The position numbers and the translations under genes were made by a program. Shown one piece after another: positions 1 through 18,981 of a stretch of 18,981 nucleotides of DNA (positions are counted from its first letter, which is position 1; the number at the start of each line of letters is the position of its first letter). The notes under the pieces were generated by a model, which saw only the letters and a list, made by a program, of their open reading frames with translations, was not told the origin of the DNA and ran no database searches. The DNA comes from a virus. Taxonomy: Duplodnaviria; Heunggongvirae; Uroviricota; Caudoviricetes. The stretch lies in IMG/VR virus record IMGVR_UViG_2558860274_000004, positions 1-18,981 of that record, one strand, 5' to 3'.

Positions 1-1233
1 ATGACTAAAAAACCATGGGAAAGAAGACTTAAAGATTTATCGCACTTGCTCAAATGCTGCATTGATACATATTTTGACCCTGAATTATTCCGCTTGAATT
101 TGAATCAATTCCTCCAAACCGCAAGAACAGTAACATTTATTATTCAAAAAAACAAAAACCAGATTATAGGATATGACATTTGGTATAACAATAATGTTAT
201 TGAAAAATGGAAAAATGATCCATTAATGGCTTGGGCTAAAAATTCTCGCAATACGATAGAAAAACAAGGCGATTTAGAAATGTATAGCGAGGCAAAGGCT
301 ACTCTTATTTCATCTTACATTGAAGAAAATGACATTGAGTTTATTACAAATGAAAGTATGTTAAACATTGGTATAAAAAAGTTAGTCAGACTTGCACAAA
401 AGAAATTACCTTCATATTTAACTGAATCATCTATTATTAAATCAGAAAGACGATGGGTCGCTAATACGCTAAAAGATTACGAATTATTACATGCCTTAGC
501 TATAATCTATGGCAGAATGTATAACTGCTGTAACTCTCTTGGCATACAAATAAACAATCCAATGGGTGACGATGTGATTTCGCCAACATCATTCGACTCT
601 TTATTTGATGAAGCCAGGAGAATAACTTATTTAAAATTAAAAGATTACTCCATAAGCAAATTGTCATTTAGCATGATACAATATGATAATAAAATAATTC
701 CTGAAGATATTAAAGAGCGTCTAAAACTGGTAGATAAGCCTAAAAATATCACTTCGACAGAAGAGTTAGTTGACTATACAGCCAAGCTTGCAGAAACGAC
801 TTTTTTAAAGGACGGTTATCACATTCAAACATTAATTTTTTATGATAAACAATTCCATCCAATTGATTTAATCAATACAACATTTGAAGATCAAGCAGAT
901 AAATATATTTTTTGGCGTTATGCAGCTGACAGAGCCAAAATAACAAATGCCTATGGCTTCATTTGGATATCAGAGCTATGGCTCAGAAAAGCAAGCATCA
1001 ACTCCAATAAACCAATACATACAATGCCAATTATAGATGAAAGACTTCAGGTAATTGGAATTGATTCAAATAATAATCAAAAATGTATTTCATGGAAAAT
1101 AGTTAGAGAAAATGAAGAAAAAAAACCGACTTTAGAAATATTAACAGCAGACTCAAAACATGACGAAAAACCATATTTCATGCGTTCAGTCTTAAAAGCA
1201 ATTGGCGGTGATGTAAACACTATGAACAATTGA
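1..1233 (+). CDS. hypothetical protein (410 aa), AT-rich orphan, function unknown
   Basis: Long uninterrupted ORF starting at ATG at position 1 and ending with TGA at 1231-1233. Composition is visibly AT-rich (about one-third G+C in the first 120 nt by hand count), unlike the rest of the window. No motif I can assign. Convergent with the Q-like gene. Confidence 0.6.
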   Translation: MTKKPWERRLKDLSHLLKCCIDTYFDPELFRLNLNQFLQTARTVTFIIQKNKNQIIGYDIWYNNNVIEKWKNDPLMAWAKNSRNTIEKQGDLEMYSEAKATLISSYIEENDIEFITNESMLNIGIKKLVRLAQKKLPSYLTESSIIKSERRWVANTLKDYELLHALAIIYGRMYNCCNSLGIQINNPMGDDVISPTSFDSLFDEARRITYLKLKDYSISKLSFSMIQYDNKIIPEDIKERLKLVDKPKNITSTEELVDYTAKLAETTFLKDGYHIQTLIFYDKQFHPIDLINTTFEDQADKYIFWRYAADRAKITNAYGFIWISELWLRKASINSNKPIHTMPIIDERLQVIGIDSNNNQKCISWKIVRENEEKKPTLEILTADSKHDEKPYFMRSVLKAIGGDVNTMNN

Positions 1234-1312
1234 GTCATAGAACTTCCATTATTCTCCTGAAGATAATAATCGCCAAATAAACCAATACTCAGTTTTACAA
1301 TATAATAACTAA

Positions 1313-1346
1313 CCGCAGAACGTTATTTCATACAACGTTTCTGCGG
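1313..1346. terminator. inverted-repeat hairpin between convergent genes (candidate terminator)
   Basis: ccgcagaacgtt (1313-1324), 9-nt loop, aacgtttctgcgg (1334-1346): near-perfect 12-bp stem. On the minus strand it is followed by a T/A-rich stretch. Lies between the stop of the 1..1233 ORF and the stop of the Q-like ORF. Confidence 0.4.
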
Positions 1347-1361
1347 CATATCACAAAACGA

Positions 1362-1759
1362 TTACTCCATAACAGGGACAGCAGGCCACTCAATATCAGG
1401 TGCAGTTGATGTATCAACACGGTTCAGCAACACCCGATACTTCTTCCAGACTTCCAGCAACGAGGTTTCTTCCTCCGTTGCGATTTCCAGATCTGCAGCA
1501 TCCTGAAGTGGCGCGATATGCTCACTGGCTACCTGCATCAGGCTGTTTTTTGTTTCTTCCGCTTCAGGCGAGCCATGCATCCACAAATGATCATCGCGTC
1601 ATCGTCACAACATTGCGGGCGGGATTTTACTTTTGAAGGGATTAGTCCTTTAAATCCTGCAGCAATAGACGACCAGGTGACATCCTCGTGATTATTTGCC
1701 ACCCATGCCCCCCAACGTTCAAGAACCATTTGAATATCACGCATCAACTTTCTCCACAA
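1362..1759 (-). pseudogene. Q-family late antiterminator-like gene, split into two frames at a T6/A6 homopolymer
   Basis: ORF 1538..1759 (minus) encodes [24 protein letters not shown]...[16 protein letters not shown], which I recall as the N-terminus of small enterobacterial Q-like antiterminators. It stops just after a homopolymer (plus-strand tttttt at 1545-1550). ORF 1362..1586 continues in another frame. A 1-nt indel in the run would join them into about 130 aa. Confidence 0.5.
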
Positions 1760-1761
1760 AA

Positions 1762-2757
1762 TCAGGCCAGCACGCCAATTGCCAGCGCACGATCGATAAA
1801 ACGAAATATCAGCTCCAGCTGGGAGCCATACTTCTCTTCAAATGCCACGGTATCCGCATGCAGCTCGTCGTGATGCTTTCTGCACAAAGGCAACACAAAA
1901 AGGTCATGCGCTTTTGTTCCCATTCCACCCTGACCGTGACCTATCAGGTGGTGGGGATCATCAGCGGGCTTTCCACAACATGCACACGGCTGTGTCATAA
2001 CCCAGCGCGTGTACTTTTCATTAACCCAGCGGCGACGTTTTGGGCGTAACATAAAAGACTCCGGCGACTCCGGATCCACTTTCAGCGCCAGCACCTTTTT
2101 CGCCTTATCCTGGATGATGCTGGTGGCAGGAACCGAAGGCACAAGGTCACTTTCCCGGGTAACAGACGGCACAACAGGCTTCGGTAATCTCAGTGCCTTA
2201 CGGGCTGCACTTTCCGGTAAGGCATCCGCCAGATCATTACGAATCAGCCACCAGCACAGTTCCGGCATTGTCACAACGTGACTGTCATCAAAACCGAGAT
2301 CCCGACGCACAACAGACAACACCCAGCGGGCACAGTTATCCGTTGCCATTGATTCCAGCCGTTCCGTGAACTGATCGCGCAGCTGGTTATCGCAGTGCCA
2401 GCACAGACGGATTGCACCCGGAGCGTGTCGCATTGTGGTCATGTTCTCGCTGTGCCAGTCGGAATGAGGCCACTGGCAGCCTTTTTCACGAAGTAACCAG
2501 CTTTCAAGACATTCCACGCCACCAGCACGACGGATCACTGCCTCATCGCGGAACACGGCCCGAACGGCAGGATCATCCGCCAGCAGTTGTGATGCCGCCG
2601 GAACGGCACCACTGGCGAAAGATGAATAACGCTCCGGCTCAGGCTCCAGCAGGACACGCCCCTGCATAAACAGGGGCATCAGCTCTGAACCTGGCCTGAA
2701 CAATACGATCCCCATACGCGGGGCAATTTCAGGGGTCAGTAGTGCTCTCACGGTCAC
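1762..2757 (-). CDS. DUF968-like prophage protein with C-terminal Cys/His-rich (HNH-like) motif
   Basis: 331-aa ORF. C-terminus [43 protein letters not shown] shows a C-x2-C ... HH ... C-x2-HH pattern typical of DUF968/HNH-like proteins found just upstream of Q in lambdoid prophages. GTG start abutting the upstream gene. Confidence 0.65.
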
Positions 2758-2758
2758 C

Positions 2759-3304
2759 TCAATGAACGGTATCGAGCAGCTTTAACAGCTCAGGGAATCG
2801 GGATTCGAAGAAATGCGGCTGCGTCTCGCGCGGATTTGCGGGACTGGTGATGTTCTTACCGAACATGCAGCCTTTCGCTGTCAGCGACCAGAATTTTTTG
2901 ATGTTGTTAATCGCGGTACGGCTGTATCGTTCGCGCTGCTCGACGATCCCCAGCTTCACCATCTGGTGATATGCCTGATTAGCCGTCAGGCGGATAACCG
3001 GTCCCCACTCCACCAGCATTCTTTTCACCTGTCTGTCGTCTTCCCACACACCCGCGTGGGTCAGGGCGTCAAACAGCGCCTTGTTATAGTTGTCCAGATC
3101 GCGGATCCGGTTAACTGGCTTTGAAGTACGGGTCTTCGCGTTTTTCTGTGTACGTGCTGACGGACGGCGATAAGCGCAGGGAAAGCTCATCCCATTTTTC
3201 CCGCAGCTTCGACGGGCTGAGCACGTTACGGCACCAGAACGGATCGCGGCTGACGCGGCTGTACATCTCGCAGATTTGTTTGTGAGTACGACCATCCTGC
3301 ACAC
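2759..3304 (-). CDS. RusA-family Holliday-junction resolvase-like ORF (motif clear, N-terminal boundary uncertain)
   Basis: Contains RIRDLDNYNKALFDALTHAGVWEDDRQV, which aligns with the RusA catalytic-Asp core ([28 protein letters not shown] from memory). The ORF-track N-terminus (GTG start, Arg/Ser/Ala-rich) does not look like RusA and overlaps the 3' end of the upstream O-like ORF by about 190 nt in another frame. True start may be the internal ATG near 3190, or the gene is frameshifted. Confidence 0.5.
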   Translation of the reverse strand: MCRMVVLTNKSARCTAASAAIRSGAVTCSARRSCGKNGMSFPCAYRRPSARTQKNAKTRTSKPVNRIRDLDNYNKALFDALTHAGVWEDDRQVKRMLVEWGPVIRLTANQAYHQMVKLGIVEQRERYSRTAINNIKKFWSLTAKGCMFGKNITSPANPRETQPHFFESRFPELLKLLDTVH

Positions 3305-4022
3305 ACATCAGGCGAATTTCGTTTGCCCAGGCTGTCCAGTTCGGTTCTTTGGGACGAACCACCTCGCCGTCACATTCGGCGGCCTGCTCGTACAGGGCAA
3401 TGATTTTTTTCCAGAGCCACTGTGCGCAGGTCAAATCATCCTGCGTTCCCCACTGGCGCTTTTTAGGGCTGAATACAACCGCATCAGGATGGCGAGTTAA
3501 AAAATCCTTTTCAGCCGTCTGCGTGTCCGGTTGCGAAGCGTCCGGACGAGAAGGTTTTTTATCTGACGGATCATGTTTTGATTTTACTGACGGATCCCCG
3601 CCAGATTCTGACGGGTGAAAACCCGCTTTTTTGCCAGATTTCGACGCATCAAATTTTGACGGGTCAGATTTTGATGCGTCAGATTTTGATGCGTCAGATT
3701 TTGACGGGTCAGAATCTGACAGTTGAGAAAATGCCGCTGCCTGAAGCTTCGCAACGTTAAGCTGATAAACATTCGACGCATTGCGGTTACCCTGGCGACG
3801 CGCCTTACGCGTTAACCAGCCTTCTGCTTCCAGCCGTGCGATAGCCGTTCTGACGGTGCTCATCCCCGCGCCAATCTGGCGGGCAATGGTTTCAATTGAT
3901 GGCCAGCACACACCTTCGTCATTACTGAAATCAGCCAGGCGGGCCATAATTGCCACGCTGGATAACTTCATGCCTGACGCAGCGCAACCATCCCATACAT
4001 AGCCGGTTAATTTAGTGCTCAT
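3111..4022 (-). CDS. replication initiator protein (lambda O-like role) with HTH N-terminus and internal iteron-encoded repeat
   Basis: 303-aa ORF with GAGG Shine-Dalgarno 7 nt upstream of ATG at 4022. N-terminal winged-HTH-like segment (SIETIARQIGAGMSTVRTAIARLEAEGWL). Central SKSDASKSDASKSDPSKFDASK repeat is encoded by 15-bp direct DNA repeats, the arrangement of lambdoid O genes that carry ori inside the coding sequence. Confidence 0.7.
   Translation of the reverse strand: MSTKLTGYVWDGCAASGMKLSSVAIMARLADFSNDEGVCWPSIETIARQIGAGMSTVRTAIARLEAEGWLTRKARRQGNRNASNVYQLNVAKLQAAAFSQLSDSDPSKSDASKSDASKSDPSKFDASKSGKKAGFHPSESGGDPSVKSKHDPSDKKPSRPDASQPDTQTAEKDFLTRHPDAVVFSPKKRQWGTQDDLTCAQWLWKKIIALYEQAAECDGEVVRPKEPNWTAWANEIRLMCVQDGRTHKQICEMYSRVSRDPFWCRNVLSPSKLREKWDELSLRLSPSVSTYTEKREDPYFKAS
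3580..3725. repeat. iteron array (candidate prophage origin of replication) inside the initiator gene
   Basis: At least four tandem 15-bp units (gtcagattttgatgc, gtcagattttgatgc, gtcagattttgacgg, gtcagaatctgacag) at about 3656-3722, plus degenerate copies upstream (ctgacggatc at 3582-3600). Each unit has internal dyad symmetry (tcagattttga vs tcaaaatctga). Confidence 0.6.
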
Positions 4023-4031
4023 GACCGACCT

Positions 4032-4370
4032 CTATTTCCCTGAATTTACGACGAAACTGTTCGAGCGGACTGAAGCATTCATGCTCATAACCTTCGCGGA
4101 GGTAGATAACCCGTTGTGTTTCCGGCTCCCAACGAATGACTCTGACGGGCACTCCGTAGTGATCTTTGAACCAGCGGTTAACTTGTCGCAAAGGACTGTC
4201 TCCTTCTGCCGGTTGAAATCACCCACAGCCCACTCTGCAAAGCTGTGGGTTACAATTTCCCTATCACCTGGTACATTCACTGCATAGCAATATTCCACCT
4301 TCGCTTTTCCACCCGGTACAGGAAGCGCAATCAGTTGCGAGCGACGGTAGTGTGTTGTTAAACTGTTCAT
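4032..4370 (-). CDS. hypothetical protein (112 aa)
   Basis: ATG at 4370 overlaps the TGA stop of the upstream CII-like gene (ATGA overlap, translational coupling). Stop at 4032-4034 lies 10 nt before the initiator start. No recognisable motif. Confidence 0.45.
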
Positions 4371-4924
4371 GCGTTAGTTTCTCCACAACCAGAAGCAATC
4401 GACGCCACGACGCCCGGAGCTGCACACTCGCGGGCGTCATTACTTTCTGAAATGCAAAAAATTTTGTAGACAAGTGCTGCATGCTCCTGCAGCTTCGAAA
4501 TTGAGAGATACAGCTCGTCGTTAATTGCTGTCTTCTCATGCGGTTCCACTACGCCGTCTTCGATTGCTGAACGAATCTGTTTTGAATAACTGCCGATCTG
4601 TTCAATGACTTCCAGCAGACGCTGGTTAATATCGGCGTTGTCCACATCCTCGACGTCAGGAAGAGACACAAAGACGCCATTTGCAGACTGCGCCACAGCA
4701 TCAGCAATGAAGTGAGTGCCACCAGCACGCTGTAAAACCATTGCCCATCCCAGCGGGAAAATCTGATCGCCATCTGCACGAAGGCGGTTGAATAAAGCGT
4801 TTTCTGTTACATCGAGCCAGTCAGCCGCTTCAGCGTAACCACCCGGCAACGCCGCGATAGTTTTTCTGACAGCTTTCACGTACCACTCAGGCTGTTTTTC
4901 CACTTTCCAGTGATGATTACCCAC
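4367..4924 (-). CDS. CII-like phage regulatory protein (family assignment tentative)
   Basis: 185-aa ORF directly downstream of cro-like gene in the same operon. GTG start preceded by AGGAGG 6 nt upstream. Position and size fit CII-like prophage regulators; no catalytic motif seen. Confidence 0.5.
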
Positions 4925-5177
4925 GGCTTACCTCCTGTTCCTGTGGTTTAAACCCATTCTGGTTTTGGCTAGATTGAAAACGTGCCGGATAAAGAATCTG
5001 CATTTCGCTGATTTCACCCTTAAAAAAATTGGCCAGACGTTCTGCAAGATCGATAGATGGAATTTGTTCCAGTCTTTCAATACGACTCAGCGTCGCTGGA
5101 TTGACCTGAACGCCAGCAGCAACATGCTGCAAAGTAAATCCGTGCGCCTTACGCACATTCCGTAATGGTGATTGCAT
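4917..5177 (-). CDS. Cro/XRE-type HTH transcriptional regulator (cro-like)
   Basis: 86-aa ORF divergent from the cI-like gene. GGAGG Shine-Dalgarno 4-8 nt upstream of ATG at 5175-5177. Helix-turn-helix-like segment FTLQHVAAGVQVNPATLSRIE. Confidence 0.75.
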   Translation of the reverse strand: MQSPLRNVRKAHGFTLQHVAAGVQVNPATLSRIERLEQIPSIDLAERLANFFKGEISEMQILYPARFQSSQNQNGFKPQEQEVSRG

Positions 5178-5274
5178 ATGACCTCCACATATTGCGTGAT
5201 GAGCATATTATTTCACGCAAATATTTTGCGCAAGTTGATTTGCTTAACGCGCAATAAAGAAATGTAATAAACGC
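5178..5274. promoter_or_regulatory. immunity-region divergent promoters and operators between cro-like and cI-like genes
   Basis: 97-bp intergenic region with repeated TTGCG(T/C) / (A/G)CGCAA half-sites: ttgcgtga-N13-tcacgcaa (5192-5220), cgcaaa-tat-tttgcg (5215-5229), ttgcgcaa (5226-5233), acgcgcaa (5247-5254). Candidate -10 taatat for the leftward (cro) promoter on the minus strand at 5205-5210. Candidate ttgctt/tgtaat rightward promoter giving a near-leaderless cI transcript. Confidence 0.55.
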
Positions 5275-5967
5275 ATGAACATAGGAAACCGAGTCAGACA
5301 ACTTCGCCAGGCGAAGAACATGAAAATCGCCGATCTCGCTGAAGCAATAGGAGTGGATGCGGCGAATATCTCACGCCTGGAAACAGGTAAGCAGAAACAA
5401 TTCACTGAACAAGCCCTGAGTAATATTGCCAAGAGCTTAGGTGTTGATATTGCTGATCTCTTTACCTCAGACTTCAAAAGTAATACTGTATGTAAAAACA
5501 GTATTAGTGAGGATGTTGCGCAGGTGAAGGATGTATTCCGTATTGAAATGCTGGATGTCAGTGCCAGTGCGGGAAATGGCCTTATCCAGGGCGGTGATGT
5601 CATTGATGTGATTCATGCCATTGAATACAGAACTGATAATGCTGTATCGATGTTTGGCGGACGGCCAGCCAATCACATTAAAGTTATCAACGTTCGTGGG
5701 GACAGTATGTGTCCAGCCATTGAGCCAGGAGATCTCATCTTCGTTGATGTCAGTATCAATCAGTTTGATGGAGATGGTATCTATGTATTTGGTTTTGATG
5801 ATAAAATTTATGTCAAACGACTGCAAATGATACCTGACAAACTACTGGTGATTTCTGATAACCAGATTTACCGTGAATGGGGAATTACCAGCGAAAATGA
5901 ACACCGGTTTATGGTCTTTGGAAAGGTCTTAATCAGCCAGTCACAAACCCTTAAGCGACACAATTAA
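5275..5967 (+). CDS. cI-like repressor, LexA/S24 family (N-terminal XRE HTH plus C-terminal autocleaving peptidase domain)
   Basis: 230-aa ORF. HTH segment MKIADLAEAIGVDAANISRLETG. Ala-Gly candidate cleavage site in SASAGNG (about residues 99-100). Ser in VRGDSMCP and Lys in YVKRL spaced 37 residues apart as in the LexA Ser/Lys dyad. Confidence 0.9.
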   Translation: MNIGNRVRQLRQAKNMKIADLAEAIGVDAANISRLETGKQKQFTEQALSNIAKSLGVDIADLFTSDFKSNTVCKNSISEDVAQVKDVFRIEMLDVSASAGNGLIQGGDVIDVIHAIEYRTDNAVSMFGGRPANHIKVINVRGDSMCPAIEPGDLIFVDVSINQFDGDGIYVFGFDDKIYVKRLQMIPDKLLVISDNQIYREWGITSENEHRFMVFGKVLISQSQTLKRHN

Positions 5968-5987
5968 CCCTTACCTCCTCATCAATT

Positions 5988-6009
5988 AGCCACCCAAAGG
6001 TGGCTTTTC
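5988..6009 (+). terminator. intrinsic terminator downstream of cI-like gene
   Basis: agccacc (5988-5994), caaa loop, ggtggct (5999-6005), followed by tttcatt. Confidence 0.5.
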
Positions 6010-6485
6010 ATTACCCTTTAAATTGCATATCTCGCAACAAAAGCACTTGCATAATGCGCAACTTCATTTTATCTTTCTTTCCAGACAAACAAACAAGGTA
6101 CTAACAAAATTTGGTTGTAACACGGCGTATGGCACATGCGTCGTTAGCGGTCTGGGGACGTTAAAGGGGACAATCCACTCCTTGCTCGGGCAAACAAACC
6201 AGGTAGCCGGAATGTGCAAGTCAATGATGATGCTGATAAGACGCCTAACCAGCGTGGCGATCCGGTTTGACGCCTGGGAAGAGACCAGGGTGCAACGATG
6301 AGGGCATTTATAGAGCCGCGACAAAGTGTGGTGCCGTAACTGGCTAAGTGCTCTCAGCGTTGTGGTAATCCGCGAAATGGCGCGGCGGTAAGTATGGCGG
6401 GGTTACTCTTTCCCCGTTGAGGACACCGGATTGTCAGGTTGACCATACGCCTGAGTGACAACCCCACCACAACAGCCACTGCTTT

Positions 6486-6532
6486 GGCGGTACCAGTTTG
6501 TACACTTGCTTCCTGCTGGTACCGCTCTTTTT
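6486..6532 (+). terminator. strong hairpin plus T-tract inside the long leader upstream of the early-left genes
   Basis: ggcggtaccag (6486-6496), about 19-nt loop, ctggtaccgc (6516-6525), followed by tcttttt (6526-6532). Confidence 0.5.
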
Positions 6533-6669
6533 ACAAAACAGAGAAGAGCATCACCGGACGACGGGCTCATAACCCAATCCATCCGGGCGGCTGCCACCGC
6601 AGGTGTTCTTCTCTGTTTTGTGGAGAAACCAACCGACCTTGCAGGGTCGATATGATGAGGAGCAGCAAA

Positions 6670-7032
6670 ATGGCTAGCGAACGCAGTACTGATGTGCAGG
6701 CATTTATCGGGGAGCTGGACGGCGGCGTATTTGAAACCAAAATCGGCGCAGTTCTCAGTGAAGTCGCTTCCGGTGTGATGAACACGAAAACCAAAGGTAA
6801 GGTCTCACTCAACCTGGAAATCGAACCATTTGATGAGAACCGTGTGAAAATCAAACACAAACTCTCATATGTTCGCCCGACTAACCGCGGGAAAATTTCC
6901 GAAGAAGACACCACCGAAACGCCGATGTATGTCAATCGCGGTGGTCGCCTGACTATTCTGCAGGAAGACCAGGGACAATTACTGACTCTTGCCGGTGAAC
7001 CTGACGGAAAACTACGCGCAGCAGGTCATTAA
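6670..7032 (+). CDS. small early prophage protein (about 121 aa), hypothetical
   Basis: ORF track gives 6439..7032, but the plausible start is ATG at 6670 with GAGGAG about 8 nt upstream. The upstream extension overlaps the terminator hairpin and has no ribosome-binding site. Size resembles a YfdP-like protein (recollection only). Confidence 0.5.
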   Translation: MASERSTDVQAFIGELDGGVFETKIGAVLSEVASGVMNTKTKGKVSLNLEIEPFDENRVKIKHKLSYVRPTNRGKISEEDTTETPMYVNRGGRLTILQEDQGQLLTLAGEPDGKLRAAGH

Positions 7033-7097
7033 TATCGTTCTTAATTAACTGATTATTTATCTCATCACTGAATATCTTTATATAGTGAGGACTTATT

Positions 7098-7922
7098 ATG
7101 TCTCAGAACTTAGACGCAACCGCAATTAATCAAATCCATGCCCTTATTTCTGCTCAGGGTGTTAATGAAATTATCAGTAATATTGGTGCCGATGCTGTGG
7201 CATTGCCTGAGAATTTCCGCATTCATGATCTGGAAAAATTTAATTTAAATCGCTTCCGTTTCCGTGGTGCGCTTTCCACTGCCAGCATCGATGACTTTAC
7301 CCGTTATTCTAAAGATCTTGCAGATGAAGGCACCCGCTGCTTTATCGATGCTGATAATATGCGTGCCGTCAGTGTACTTAACCTGGGTACTATTGATGAA
7401 CCAGGTCACGCAGATAACACCGCCACTCTCAAACTGAAAAAGACAGCACCGTTCTCTGCCCTGTTGTCTGTTAACGGCGAGCGTAACTCCCAGAAGTCAC
7501 TGGCAGAATGGATTGAAGACTGGGCCGACTACCTTGTGGGCTTTGATGCTAATGGTGACGCTATTCAGGCAACAAAAGCGGCTGCGGCAGTCCGTAAAAT
7601 CACGATTGAAGCAAACCAGACCGCTGATTTTGAAGATAATGACTTCAGCGGCAAACGCTCCCTGATGGAGTCTGTCGAAGCGAAGACCAAAGACATTATG
7701 CCAGTGGCATTTGAATTTAAATGCGTTCCGTTTGAAGGTCTGAAAGAACGTCCGTTTAAATTACGCCTCAGCATTATCACTGGCGATCGTCCTGTACTGG
7801 TTCTGCGCATTATTCAGCTGGAGGCGGTGCAGGAAGAAATGGCTAACGAATTTCGTGATCTGCTTGTTGAGAAATTCAAGGACAGCAAAGTAGAAACCTT
7901 TATTGGTACTTTCACCGCCTGA
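7098..7922 (+). CDS. DUF2303-like prophage protein (YfdQ-like, 274 aa)
   Basis: ATG at 7098 with GAGGA 8 nt upstream. Length and gene order (followed by an HD-domain gene and DUF551 genes) match my recollection of the yfdPQRST block of E. coli prophages. Identity not verified. Confidence 0.6.
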
Positions 7923-8049
7923 TTTCATTACTGCAAATGCCCCTGCGGGGGCATTTATGGAAACGTAATTTACTCAATAATCGCCGGATGGTGAGGGATT
8001 CTTTTTACCAGAATTCAGCGCGGTGCAGCGCATATACGTGGAGAACAAA

Positions 8050-8939: not shown

Positions 8940-9451
8940 TGACCACATTTACCAATAAAGAACTGATTAAAGAAATCAAAGAACGAATCAGCAGCCTAGA
9001 GGTTCGAGACGATATTGAGCGCCGTGCTTATGAAATTGCTCTGGCATCGCTGGAAGAGGAGCCGGTGGCATGGCTGCATTCAGACAATGGCTTAGGTATT
9101 CCGGCAATAACCAGGAGCAAAAACATTGCTGACAGTTGGTTATCAATGGGCTGGTATGTTCAGCCGCTATATATAGCCAAGCCAGTACTGGTGGTGCCAG
9201 ATGCTCGTCCGTCTTTAAATAATGGCATAGTCGGTTTTGATGAAGGCTGGAACGCCTGCCGCGCTACCATGCTTCATGGTGCCAAACCTGTAAGCCAGAC
9301 TTACAAGTTGAACAAGCTGTCGGGCAACTCTCCGGTAACTCAGGATGGTTGGATAAGCTGTAGTGAGCGAATGCCGAACGATAAACAGTATGTTTGGTGT
9401 TGGGGTAAGTCTTACGGCTGGACTGAGTGCGATACCTTCGAAGGGTATTAG
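8939..9451 (+). pseudogene. 5' portion (170 codons) of an Ead/DUF551-type gene interrupted by IS66-family insertion
   Basis: ORF ends at a TAG created at the insertion junction (ta from host plus g from the IS end). The reading frame resumes after the IS at 11992 and ends with VTHWMPLPEPPQEVK, the DUF551 signature. Confidence 0.7.
9443..9450. repeat. 8-bp target-site duplication (gggtatta), left copy, IS66-family element
   Basis: Identical to 11983-11990, immediately flanking the IS ends. Confidence 0.85.
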
Positions 9452-9535
9452 TAAGCGTAAACTGACCGCCGTATGTAGCCATCAGACGAGAATTGGTAAC
9501 TTAGACGCCCATCTGATATAGACGGACATCTAAGT

Positions 9536-9961
9536 ATGGAATTACAGGACTGGCGAAAAGAACCTCGTAAAAACTATTCGAATGAATTCAAACTTCGTAT
9601 GGTGGAACTGGCATCACAACCTGGAGCTTGTGTTGCACAGATTGCACGTGAAAATGGCGTCAATGATAATGTTATTTTCAAATGGCTCAGGCTCTGGCAG
9701 AACGAAGGGCGTGTTTCGCGGCGTCTTCCGGTAACGACCTCTTCTGACACTGGCGTTGAATTATTACCTGTAGAAATAACGCCGGATGAGCAGAAAGAAC
9801 CTGTGGCGGCCATTGCGCCGTCTTTATCCACTTCCACTCAGACCAGAGTCAGTGCCAGTTCCTGCAAGGTGGAATTCCGTCACGGCAACATGACGCTGGA
9901 AAATCCATCGCCAGAGCTGCTCACAGTGTTGATCCGTGAACTGACCGGGAGGGGAAGATGA
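9536..9961 (+). CDS. tnpA: IS66-family accessory protein TnpA (orf1)
   Basis: 141-aa ORF with HTH-like N-terminus (NYSNEFKLRMVELASQPGACVAQIARENGV), first gene in the IS, overlapping tnpB by 4 nt. Confidence 0.8.
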   Translation: MELQDWRKEPRKNYSNEFKLRMVELASQPGACVAQIARENGVNDNVIFKWLRLWQNEGRVSRRLPVTTSSDTGVELLPVEITPDEQKEPVAAIAPSLSTSTQTRVSASSCKVEFRHGNMTLENPSPELLTVLIRELTGRGR

Positions 9962-10308
9962 TCTCACTCCCATCAGGTACCCGTATCTGGCTCGTTGCCG
10001 GCGTTACCGATATGCGTAAATCCTTCAACGGACTGGGAGAACAGGTACAACATGTGCTGAATGATAATCCCTTCTCCGGTCACCTGTTTATCTTCCGTGG
10101 CCGACGGGGTGACACCGTCAAAATTCTTTGGGCTGATGCTGATGGTCTGTGCCTGTTCACCAAACGCCTGGAGGAAGGCCAGTTTATCTGGCCTGCGGTA
10201 CGTGACGGCAAGGTATCCATTACCCGCTCGCAACTGGCAATGCTCCTCGATAAGCTGGACTGGCGTCAGCCAAAAACATCCAGCCGTAACTCACTGACAA
10301 TGTTGTAA
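9958..10308 (+). CDS. tnpB: IS66-family TnpB (orf2)
   Basis: 116-aa ORF (LPSGTRIWLVAGVTDMRKSFNGL...) in the characteristic middle position of IS66 elements. Confidence 0.8.
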   Translation: MISLPSGTRIWLVAGVTDMRKSFNGLGEQVQHVLNDNPFSGHLFIFRGRRGDTVKILWADADGLCLFTKRLEEGQFIWPAVRDGKVSITRSQLAMLLDKLDWRQPKTSSRNSLTML

Positions 10309-10338
10309 AAAACTCCTGACCGCATTATAAAAACGGTC

Positions 10339-11952
10339 ATGAGTCAGAAATACCTCATTCGCATCGCAGAGCTGGAAAGGTTGCTCTCTGAGCAGGCTGA
10401 AGCCCTCCGTCAGAAAGACCAGCAACTGAGTCTGGTTGAAGAGACGGAAGCCTTCCTGCGCTCTGCACTGACACGTGCCGAAGAAAAGATCGAAGAAGAT
10501 GAACGGGAAATAGAACATCTGCGGGCTCAGATAGAAAAACTGCGCCGGATGCTGTTCGGTACCCGTTCTGAAAAACTGCGTCGTGAAGTTGAACTGGCTG
10601 AGGCTCTGCTGAAACAACGTGAACAGGACAGCGATCGTTACAGTGGGCGGGAAGACGATCCTCAGGTTCCCCGCCAGTTGCGACAGTCGCGCCATCGTCG
10701 TCCGTTACCGGCACACCTTCCCCGTGAAATACACCGCCTGGAGCCAGAAGAAAGCTGTTGCCCGGAGTGTGGCGGTGAGCTGGATTATCTGGGGGAAGTC
10801 AGCGCTGAACAGCTGGAACTGGTGAGCAGTGCCCTGAAAGTGATCCGCACAGAACGGGTAAAAAAAGCCTGTACAAAATGTGACTGTATTGTTGAAGCAC
10901 CGGCGCCGTCCCGCCCGATAGAGCGTGGTATCGCGGGCCCCGGATTACTTGCCCGCGTGTTAACGGGAAAATACTGCGAACATCTGCCACTGTATCGTCA
11001 GAGTGAAATCTTTGCCCGCCAGGGTGTCGAACTGAGCCGGGCCTTACTCTCCAACTGGGTTGACGCGTGCTGCCAGTTAATGACACCGGTGAATGATGCC
11101 CTGTACCGTTATGTAATGAACACCCGCAAGGTTCACACTGATGACACACCGGTAAAGGTACTGGCACCGGGTCAGAAAAAGGCGAAAACAGGGCGTATCT
11201 GGACGTATGTCCGGGATGATCGCAATGTGGGTTCGTCATCTCCTCCAGCGGTCTGGTTCGCGTACTCGCCGAACCGGCAGGGGAAACACCCGGAGCAACA
11301 CCTCCGCCCCTTCCGGGGTATCCTGCAGGCGGATGCGTTCACAGGTTACGACAGGTTGTTCAGTGCAGGACGTGAAGGTGGTGCACTGACAGAAGTTGCG
11401 TGCTGGGCCCATGCCCGGCGAAAAATCCACGATGTATACATCAGCAGCAAAAGTGCGACGGCAGAAGAAGCACTGAAGCGAATCAGTGAACTGTACGCCA
11501 TCGAGGATGAAATACGGGGATTACCGGAGTCAGAGCGTCTTGCCGTCAGGCAGCAGCGAAGCAAAGTGTTACTGACGTCGCTGCATGAATGGATGGTGGA
11601 GAAGAATGGTACGCTGTCGAAAAAATCCAGACTGGGCGAAGCGTTCAGCTATGTACTGAATCAGTGGGATGCCCTCTGTTATTACAGTGATGACGGTCTG
11701 GCGGAGGCGGATAATAATGCTGCGGAAAGAGCGCTTCGTGCAGTCTGTCTCGGAAAGAAAAACTTTATGTTCTTTGGCAGCGATCACGGCGGCGAGCGTG
11801 GAGCACTGTTGTACGGGCTGATCGGCACCTGCCGTCTGAACGGTATCGATCCGGAAGCGTATCTGCGCCATATCCTGAGCGTACTGCCGGAATGGCCTTC
11901 CAACCGAGTTGATGAACTCCTGCCATGGAACGTAGTACTCACCAATAAATAA
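10339..11952 (+). CDS. tnpC: IS66-family transposase TnpC (orf3)
   Basis: 537-aa ORF with N-terminal coiled-coil/leucine-zipper region, CxxC...CxxC zinc-finger-like motif (CCPECGGEL...CTKCDC) and a C-terminal catalytic region, as in IS66 transposases. Confidence 0.85.
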   Translation: MSQKYLIRIAELERLLSEQAEALRQKDQQLSLVEETEAFLRSALTRAEEKIEEDEREIEHLRAQIEKLRRMLFGTRSEKLRREVELAEALLKQREQDSDRYSGREDDPQVPRQLRQSRHRRPLPAHLPREIHRLEPEESCCPECGGELDYLGEVSAEQLELVSSALKVIRTERVKKACTKCDCIVEAPAPSRPIERGIAGPGLLARVLTGKYCEHLPLYRQSEIFARQGVELSRALLSNWVDACCQLMTPVNDALYRYVMNTRKVHTDDTPVKVLAPGQKKAKTGRIWTYVRDDRNVGSSSPPAVWFAYSPNRQGKHPEQHLRPFRGILQADAFTGYDRLFSAGREGGALTEVACWAHARRKIHDVYISSKSATAEEALKRISELYAIEDEIRGLPESERLAVRQQRSKVLLTSLHEWMVEKNGTLSKKSRLGEAFSYVLNQWDALCYYSDDGLAEADNNAAERALRAVCLGKKNFMFFGSDHGGERGALLYGLIGTCRLNGIDPEAYLRHILSVLPEWPSNRVDELLPWNVVLTNK

Positions 11953-11982
11953 GCGTCAATACGGTGCTCCGTTGACGCTTAC

Positions 11983-16608: not shown

Positions 16609-16616
16609 TGTAGTGG

Positions 16617-17785
<1,169 letters not shown>

Positions 17786-17841
17786 TGGAGCACCTGTGTT
17801 GTTCTGAGGTGAGCATATCACCTCTGTTCAGGTGGCCAAAT

Positions 17842-18981
17842 TCAGTGTGCCACTACATAAACTTGCCATACACCTGGCAGTTTATGACCGAGCATTATTT
17901 CAGCAATATGAGGCGCAGTAAGATCAGAAAAGTTTGTTCGTGCTGTTCGTCTCAAATCATGAAGAGACCAATGAGGAAATTGATACCCCAAACGCCGCCA
18001 TGCGTACTGCATTAAATTGTAAGGCAGCGACTGCAATGATGTCCGACCAACTGGTTCCCTGCTTCCTTCCTTAGTAAAAAGCATATCGGAACCGTTGTTC
18101 ATAGAGATAACGTATTTTATAAGCTCTTCAACCGGTTCAATAATGGGCCGCTTTAGCGGTTCGCCTGTTATATCCCCTGTCTTATGTCGTTCTGGTGGTA
18201 CAGTCCATATTTTATTAATGAAATCAAAATCGTCCACCTTGGCAGTAATTAGCTCTGAACTACGGCAACCAAAATGCAGCAATAGTTTAATGAAGGCCCG
18301 GTATTTAGGAACCATTCGAGAACCATCGATCGCAGCATAAAGGATTTTAATTTCATCATGTGTCAGAAACCGTTTCTTCTGACCTTTACGGATATCCATA
18401 TCTTTACCCGTGATATCCGACAGCGGGCGAGTTTCAATGAGCTTTCTCTTATACGCCCAGACATGGGCCTGCTTTGCGTTAATTAGCAATCGGTCTGCTA
18501 TTGCTGGAGTCTTAGTGCTAAGAGGCTCCAGGACTTCTAACCAATCATGCAATGTAGCTGCATCGTGAGGGATATTCCCGATTTTAGAGAACAGGTGCAG
18601 CTCAAACGAGCGGAGTATCTGTTCAGAACCTTTTTTATTTTTTACACAATATGCTTCATACCAAGCACGGATCACAGATTCTACCGTCATGGCTTCAGTA
18701 GCTTTACGTTTTTCTGCCAGCTTGACCAATCGTGGATTGCGGTTTGACTCGAGTTCACCACGAAGACGGATAACTTCTTCTCTGGCCTCTTTTAGTCCAG
18801 TTGCCGGGTAAGTTCCGATATCAAGACGCTCACCTTTCCCCGCCCACTGATAACGATATTGGAACACTACGCGACCTTTCGGTGATACTCTAACAGACAG
18901 ACCATCACGATCGGATTTAACCAAAACCTTATCACGTTCCTTTCCAACGACTGAACGCAACCACGCATCAGACAGCGCCAT
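17842..18981 (-). CDS. int: tyrosine integrase, P4-like; C-terminal tail replaced by IS-derived codons after insertion
   Basis: ATG at the window edge (18979-18981). N-terminus MALSDAWLRSVVGKERDKVLVKSDRDGLSVRVSPKGRVVFQYRYQWAGKGERL is arm-binding-like. Catalytic region ...HDLRRTARTNF...LGHKLPGVWQVY. After the Tyr codon the frame runs into the IS end (VVAH-stop at 17842-17844). Native continuation lies at 16506-16608. Confidence 0.85.
   Translation of the reverse strand: MALSDAWLRSVVGKERDKVLVKSDRDGLSVRVSPKGRVVFQYRYQWAGKGERLDIGTYPATGLKEAREEVIRLRGELESNRNPRLVKLAEKRKATEAMTVESVIRAWYEAYCVKNKKGSEQILRSFELHLFSKIGNIPHDAATLHDWLEVLEPLSTKTPAIADRLLINAKQAHVWAYKRKLIETRPLSDITGKDMDIRKGQKKRFLTHDEIKILYAAIDGSRMVPKYRAFIKLLLHFGCRSSELITAKVDDFDFINKIWTVPPERHKTGDITGEPLKRPIIEPVEELIKYVISMNNGSDMLFTKEGSREPVGRTSLQSLPYNLMQYAWRRLGYQFPHWSLHDLRRTARTNFSDLTAPHIAEIMLGHKLPGVWQVYVVAH

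Follow-up and report, generated by a model that had tools for sequence, protein, structure and literature searches.

Does the window analyzed here, an 18,981-nt stretch of viral DNA, encode a RusA-family resolvase? A mechanically called ORF of 181 codons (2759..3304, minus strand) contains the RusA catalytic motif and overlaps the replication initiator gene by 194 nt in a different frame. An earlier note on this DNA had considered that the ORF might be a frameshifted pseudogene, a divergent resolvase with a novel C-terminal extension, or the product of fusion or programmed frameshifting with the initiator. Comparison with intact relatives leaves us highly confident that positions 2759-3304 are not a gene and represent a chimeric pseudogene remnant, produced by two deletions in the early region of a decaying prophage. 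Judged from the sequence, the long ORF is an accidental sum of out-of-frame initiator sequence, 40 RusA codons and 78 codons of a KilA-N-domain protein (Table 1).

Each of the three parts could be traced to its source. The Arg/Ser/Ala-rich residues 1-64 of the ORF overlie the 3′ end of the initiator gene, and the DNA that encodes them is 99.5% identical to the intact initiator gene of the closest relative; thus, they are an out-of-frame translation, as the earlier note had suspected. Residues 65-104 (NRIRDLDNYNKALFDALTHAGVWEDDRQVKRMLVEWGPVI) match positions 70-109 of an intact RusA (129 aa) at 100% identity; residues 104-181 match positions 192-269 of an intact KilA-N-domain protein (269 aa), also at 100% identity and down to its stop codon. 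The extra ~75 aa that had been noticed beyond the normal end of RusA are therefore the 78 C-terminal residues of the protein encoded by the adjacent gene, joined in frame. The stretch identical to RusA (NRIRDLDNYNK...) starts at position 3112, directly behind the initiator stop codon and one nucleotide downstream of the initiator frame ((4022-3304) mod 3 = 1), which is the arrangement described in the earlier note. At the nucleotide level, the rusA genes of two E. coli prophages (strains 19451123 and JX2, see below) match the window over 122 nt at 100% identity, far beyond chance.

Profile and translated searches delimit the RusA portion. The 181-aa ORF matches the Pfam RusA family (PF05866) with E=8.8e-12, covering only profile positions 52-110 of 124; the part that follows the boundary with the initiator (junction B) covers positions 78-110, compared to 1-123 for RusA of the intact relative. 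The Pfam alignment which reaches back to ORF residue 38 is a chance extension into out-of-frame initiator sequence that adds only ~7 bits. Similarly, the ORF aligns with residues 62-104 only of the E. coli RusA structure (1Q8R), compared to residues 6-116 for the intact relative. In tblastn searches of the whole window, RusA yielded residues 68-109 alone (E=2e-26), with all remaining hits at E>2, so that residues 1-67 and 110-129 are encoded in no frame, and a RusA-like N-terminus, as previously remarked, is likewise found in none. The KilA-N protein yielded no more than residues 186-269, with full identity from 192 to 269, and the initiator residues 1-293 of 308. When all proteins of the intact module were used as queries, Dam, LexA-like and YfdN sequences, as well as any other RusA or KilA-N sequence, were absent from all frames of the window.

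Table 1 Coordinates of features in the window. L004 denotes the prophage locus of E. coli 19451123.
Feature	Position in window	Strand	Description
DUF968 (HNH-like) gene	1762..2757	-	Intact; next surviving gene of the module, immediately downstream
3′ remnant of KilA-N-domain gene	2759..2996	-	Codons 192-269 and stop; equals the conserved C-terminal domain, phrog_6486 positions 1-78 of 78
Junction A	2992..2996		Microhomology GGATA (5 bp); rusA codon 109 in frame with KilA-N codon 192
Internal rusA fragment (NRIRDLDNYNKALFDALTHAGVWEDDRQVKRMLVEWGPVI)	2993..3112	-	Codons 70-109 of 129; without native start or stop
Replication initiator gene	3111..4022	-	303 codons; Pfam HTH_36; phrog_391 'replication initiation O-like'; TAA stop at 3113-3111
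Junction B	3112..3113		Microhomology TA (2 bp); initiator, 46 nt short of its natural stop, joined to rusA codon 70
Out-of-frame initiator sequence	3114..3304	-	Arg/Ser/Ala-rich N-terminal 64 codons of the ORF; without coding meaning of its own
Alignment block	1698-2996		L004 2501-3799
Alignment block	2992-3113		L004 4453-4574
Alignment block	3112-3683		L004 6290-6861
IS66-family TnpA	9536..9961
IS66-family TnpB	9958..10308
IS66-family transposase	10339..11952
IS3-family ORF	16617..17456	-
IS3-family ORF	17483..17821	-

Taken as a whole, the window is most closely related to a prophage of E. coli 19451123 (NZ_CP191548; L004), with 98-100% identity over the shared stretches. In this prophage, the genes follow the order initiator (308 aa), yfdN (PerC), phage dam, a lexA-like gene encoding a LexA DNA-binding domain, rusA (129 aa), the KilA-N gene (269 aa), DUF968 and Q; an intact rusA/KilA-N module is also present in E. 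coli JX2 (L001). Megablast of positions 2600-3500 against 5426 complete E. coli genomes produced no contiguous match, and fourteen genomes cover the whole query split into three pieces spread over ~2.46 kb. The comparison with homologous prophages that the earlier note had proposed thus located the deletions, the breakpoints being placed by base-level comparison with both JX2 and 19451123. Relative to the latter, 1715 bp (L004 4575-6289) are missing at junction B, namely, the 3′ end of the initiator gene, yfdN, dam, the lexA-like gene and the first 69 codons of rusA. At junction A, 653 bp (L004 3800-4452) are missing; they comprise the end of rusA (codons 110-129), the intergenic spacer and the first 191 codons of the KilA-N gene, with the KilA-N domain in its entirety. 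Each breakpoint could be placed on a reference that is intact and nearly identical, and the derived reading frames are truncated, as befits a deletion-derived pseudogene.

We propose that the ancestral element had the gene order initiator, yfdN (PerC), dam, lexA-like, rusA, KilA-N-domain gene, DUF968 and Q, and that two illegitimate deletions at short microhomologies removed the 1715 and 653 bp, respectively. Through deletion B, at TA, the initiator gene would have lost its last 15 codons, gained a new TAA stop and come to abut codon 70 of rusA, which is read in another frame. Through deletion A, at GGATA, codon 109 of rusA would have been placed ahead of KilA-N codon 192 with the frame maintained. 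Of the suggestion that the locus is a frameshifted pseudogene, the pseudogene part holds and the frameshift does not, because what is left of rusA is an internal piece of 40 codons between two deletion junctions. A divergent resolvase with a novel C-terminal extension can be discarded: the RusA part is 100% identical to the intact protein yet lacks residues 1-69 and 110-129, and the extension is the tail of the KilA-N gene.

The retained fragment includes the part of RusA that first draws attention. It aligns with residues 66-104 of E. coli RusA, RDLDNYNK...WEDD in the fragment corresponding to RRDLDNLQK...WLDD of 1Q8R, and preserves the equivalents of D70, D72, K76 and D91. From the RusA literature, we take D70, D72 and D91, together with K76, to be the catalytic residues of the enzyme; the structure of a D70N mutant (PDB 2H8C) marks the first of these Asp residues and is consistent with a catalytic role for D70. 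Hence, the catalytic Asp residues, whose possible loss upon proper alignment had been raised, are kept. The rest of the enzyme is not: the ORF does not align end to end with the profile or the structure of the full-length RusA domain (~120 aa), and it has neither a RusA start of its own nor the N-terminal half, which forms the dimer core. Starting at either of the in-frame ATG codons, 3190 or 3019, produces an N-terminus that bears no relation to RusA, and no internal start gives a clean full-length RusA. Since the N-terminal 69 and the last 20 residues are missing, the RusA fold cannot form, and resolvase activity would have been lost despite the conservation of the acidic residues, with ~70% of the fold gone, including the whole N-terminal half. 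The locus occupies the usual position of lambdoid RusA genes, the interval between the replication genes and Q, typified by rusA of the K-12 prophage DLP12 and rus of phage 82 (1Q8R, 2H8C; PF05866). It differs from them in that only ~31% of the protein remains, foreign sequence is fused on both sides and the native start codon is missing. Furthermore, rusA of DLP12 is intact but silent, whereas rusA of the window is destroyed.

The C-terminal part of the ORF derives from a KilA-N-domain 'transcriptional regulator' (phrog_129) encoded by cdtI, SfV, SfIV, mEp460 and Stx2c phages, with which the last 78 residues share 98-100% identity. The KilA-N domain itself (PF04383) corresponds to residues 7-109 of the intact protein; in the window, this domain and the linker are deleted and only residues 192-269 are left, which places the ORF outside the KilA-N family. 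The retained C-terminal domain (2759-2996) corresponds exactly to phrog_6486, a 78-position PHROG of unknown function, and has no Pfam match even at E values up to 1. The domain is conserved among phages of Klebsiella, Pseudomonas, Paenibacillus, Ruminococcus and Hamiltonella (APSE), where it forms the C-terminal end of KilA-N proteins, antirepressors and proteins labelled 'DNA-binding'; tblastn detected it in the Pseudomonas, Paenibacillus, Ruminococcus and APSE phages.

The alternative that survives best, although we consider it unlikely, is that a small protein is expressed from this region, either from an 86-aa ORF starting at ATG 3019 or from a 143-aa ORF starting at ATG 3190, by way of read-through early transcripts. 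Such a protein would be a stand-alone C-terminal domain, for example, a DNA- or partner-binding competitor, and not a resolvase. The 86-aa ORF consists of RusA residues 101-109 followed by the complete C-terminal domain of the KilA-N-family protein, the retained 78 aa spanning the whole phrog_6486 profile (1-78 of 78), which is conserved in distant phages; moreover, the 86-aa or the 143-aa ORF is predicted by gene callers. The fusion at junction A is in frame, but an in-frame join is expected by chance in about one case out of three. An AGGTG Shine-Dalgarno-like sequence lies 6 nt upstream of ATG 3019; however, both are native internal rusA sequence and are found in intact genes too. The allele is present in at least two prophage contexts, yet the ORF occurs on only a handful of contigs, and its copies diverge by no more than 0.5%, differing at six positions at most, which is too low for detecting purifying selection. 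In addition, a promoter scan of positions 1600-4400 revealed no sigma-70-like site. Terminator-like hits in the same interval are consensus matches within coding sequence. Marginally less probable still is the specific scenario of a chance-made small gene, in which the early operon of a domesticated prophage would supply the 86-aa protein, kept as interference against superinfecting phages that use the full-length regulator.

The chimeric remnant, our preferred reading, gains a further dimension from E. coli AB56 (NZ_OZ547614; L003), the only one of the 5426 complete E. coli genomes that carries junction B without junction A. In AB56, an initiator ending in ...REDPYFKAS and a stop codon is followed by PVNRIRDLDN...KVEITISKYEKTAGAAA and a stop codon, that is, rusA from codon 70 onwards; an intact KilA-N gene comes next. 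In the PGAP annotation, this rusA (AC9VTE_RS20065) is a pseudogene, 'incomplete; missing N-terminus'. The sequence of junction B is identical to that in the window, but AB56 has kept the native 3′ end of rusA and the intact KilA-N gene, and the body of its initiator comes from another family. Because junction B occurs alone in AB56, which would represent the intermediate state, deletion B probably preceded deletion A. The AB56 initiator (L003 3549-4322) is a different, 257-aa HTH protein unrelated to the HTH_36/O-like initiator of the window, although the two share the last ~9 codons (REDPYFKAS; window 3111-3141) along with the identical deletion scar. Either the shared scar was moved between replication modules by recombination or the initiator families have a common C-terminal tail.

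The same genome bears on the possibility that programmed +1 frameshifting or a translational fusion yields an initiator-resolvase protein, which we regard as close to negligible. The sole point in its favor is the physical abutment of the initiator stop codon and the RusA motif. In the intact relatives, the initiator runs for 15 more codons in its own frame, and 1.7 kb with four genes separates it from rusA, so that neither a conserved two-frame arrangement nor a shift signal marks a recoding site. A rare +1 shift would be needed, unaided by any conserved signal, at a site that exists only through deletion, and the RusA part of the product would still be just 40 residues. AB56 has the same scar after a different initiator, with rusA called a pseudogene there. 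The abutment is thus a deletion scar, and the fusion or frameshift considered in the earlier note is set aside.

Beyond AB56, the scars have a narrow distribution. Junction A was not found in the 5426 complete E. coli genomes, and neither junction was found in 50,697 phage records; in all deposited phages with the module (including cdtI, SfV, SfIV, mEp460, Ayreon and Stx2c phages), rusA and the KilA-N gene are intact. A search with the junction-A 28-mer of one genome per GTDB species gave 0 matches, a result that is uninformative since the E. albertii representative evidently lacks the allele. Other prophages display deletions with breakpoints unlike those of the window. In E. coli JX2, rusA is intact, dam is gone and the gene directly after the initiator is truncated; in E. 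coli AR437 (L002), the loss starts at this truncated gene and reaches as far as the final ~38 nt of the KilA-N gene, leaving no rusA fragment. The truncated gene, which lacks its C-terminus, is located at L001 5719-6033 and L002 4199-4513. Collectively, these cases suggest that independent deletions have repeatedly eroded the interval that separates the initiator from DUF968.

The double-junction allele itself is present in a number of assemblies. In the public collection, 13 contigs encode a truncated initiator identical to the 303-aa protein of the window. We retrieved eight independent loci (L005-L012), originating from three NCBI assemblies, one JGI metagenome contig and four ENA metagenome contigs, and probed them with the 28-mers that span the junctions (GCCGTCAGGCGGATAACCGGTCCCCACT and GCGGATCCGGTTAACTGGCTTTGAAGTA). 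A sequencing or assembly artefact, be it a mis-joined or collapsed contig or a false frameshift made by an indel, is excluded, since both 28-mers are exact in all eight of these independently assembled contigs, within a DUF968-to-initiator region that is 99.5-100% identical to the window over 2261 bp; nothing was found in favor of such an artefact, against which the earlier note had suggested checking read support. One of the three NCBI assemblies, that of Escherichia albertii KF1 (CP007025.1; PMC3907721), is 100% identical to window positions 1-8022. L008 and L005 show that the allele is not tied to a single prophage background: in the metagenome contig L008, the immunity region differs and Q is intact.

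For the initiator gene, the consequence is a truncation. Compared to the intact 308-aa allele, the protein lacks the last 15 residues (YDNVDYSQIPAGFRG) and now ends in ...REDPYFKAS, its TAA stop being formed at junction B itself; it also has two additional 15-nt (SDASK) repeat units. These belong to a tandem repeat inside the initiator gene (3635-3713), in which the 15-nt unit CAGATTTTGACGCGT is present in 5.3 copies and encodes SDASK/SDPSK repeats. The array is 30 nt (two units) longer in the window than in E. coli 19451123. The 15-nt repeat is iteron-like and, for this reason, may be the replication origin.

The significance of these results concerns mainly annotation. The 143-aa protein of E. 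albertii KF1 in RefSeq (WP_077696031.1) is named a RusA family crossover junction endodeoxyribonuclease. This name is an over-annotation of a chimera with only 40 RusA residues, and the entry would better be treated as a pseudogene, as PGAP has done for the equivalent AB56 locus. A deletion-scar pseudogene in a cryptic prophage is ordinary decay and raises no new biological question. Nevertheless, the locus offers a base-resolved example of a prophage early region eroded stepwise by short-microhomology deletions, with one scar supplying the upstream gene with a new stop codon and with the intermediate preserved in another species.

The element that hosts the locus is a decaying lambdoid prophage of E. 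albertii, CPS-53/e14-like and carrying Dsr1, located between yjjG and prfC. Downstream of DUF968, a 73-aa ORF (1538-1759, minus strand) aligns with the relative's antiterminator Q (122 aa) over residues 1-65 only, at 66% identity, and represents a different, truncated Q allele. Beyond it lies an Ea47-like gene (1..1233, plus strand), followed in CP007025.1 by dinI and a chromosomal gene for an RF3-type GTPase. No lysis or structural genes are present, in the window and CP007025.1, in the stretch where relatives carry them; given that only the Ea47-like, dinI and RF3-type GTPase genes are found there, the lysis and morphogenesis genes have been deleted.

Two insertion sequences have entered the other part of the prophage. 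An IS66-family element of 2.5 kb (9451-11982), flanked by an 8-bp target duplication, is inserted relative to E. coli 19451123 and interrupts the accessory region of the prophage downstream of yfdR. An IS3-family element (16609-17855), likewise an insertion relative to that strain, lies in the 3′ end of the gene for the prophage tyrosine integrase, with flanks that overlap by 5 bp. The integrase ORF is 379 aa long, compared to ~407 aa expected, and this shortening by the IS3-family insertion has probably locked the prophage in place. Between the two elements, the gene for the Dsr1 anti-phage sirtuin (12496-16323, minus strand; 1275 aa; NCBIfam NF041818, 2059 bits) is intact, and its DNA is 100% identical to that of the E. 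coli relative, a defence cargo kept amid decaying phage functions.
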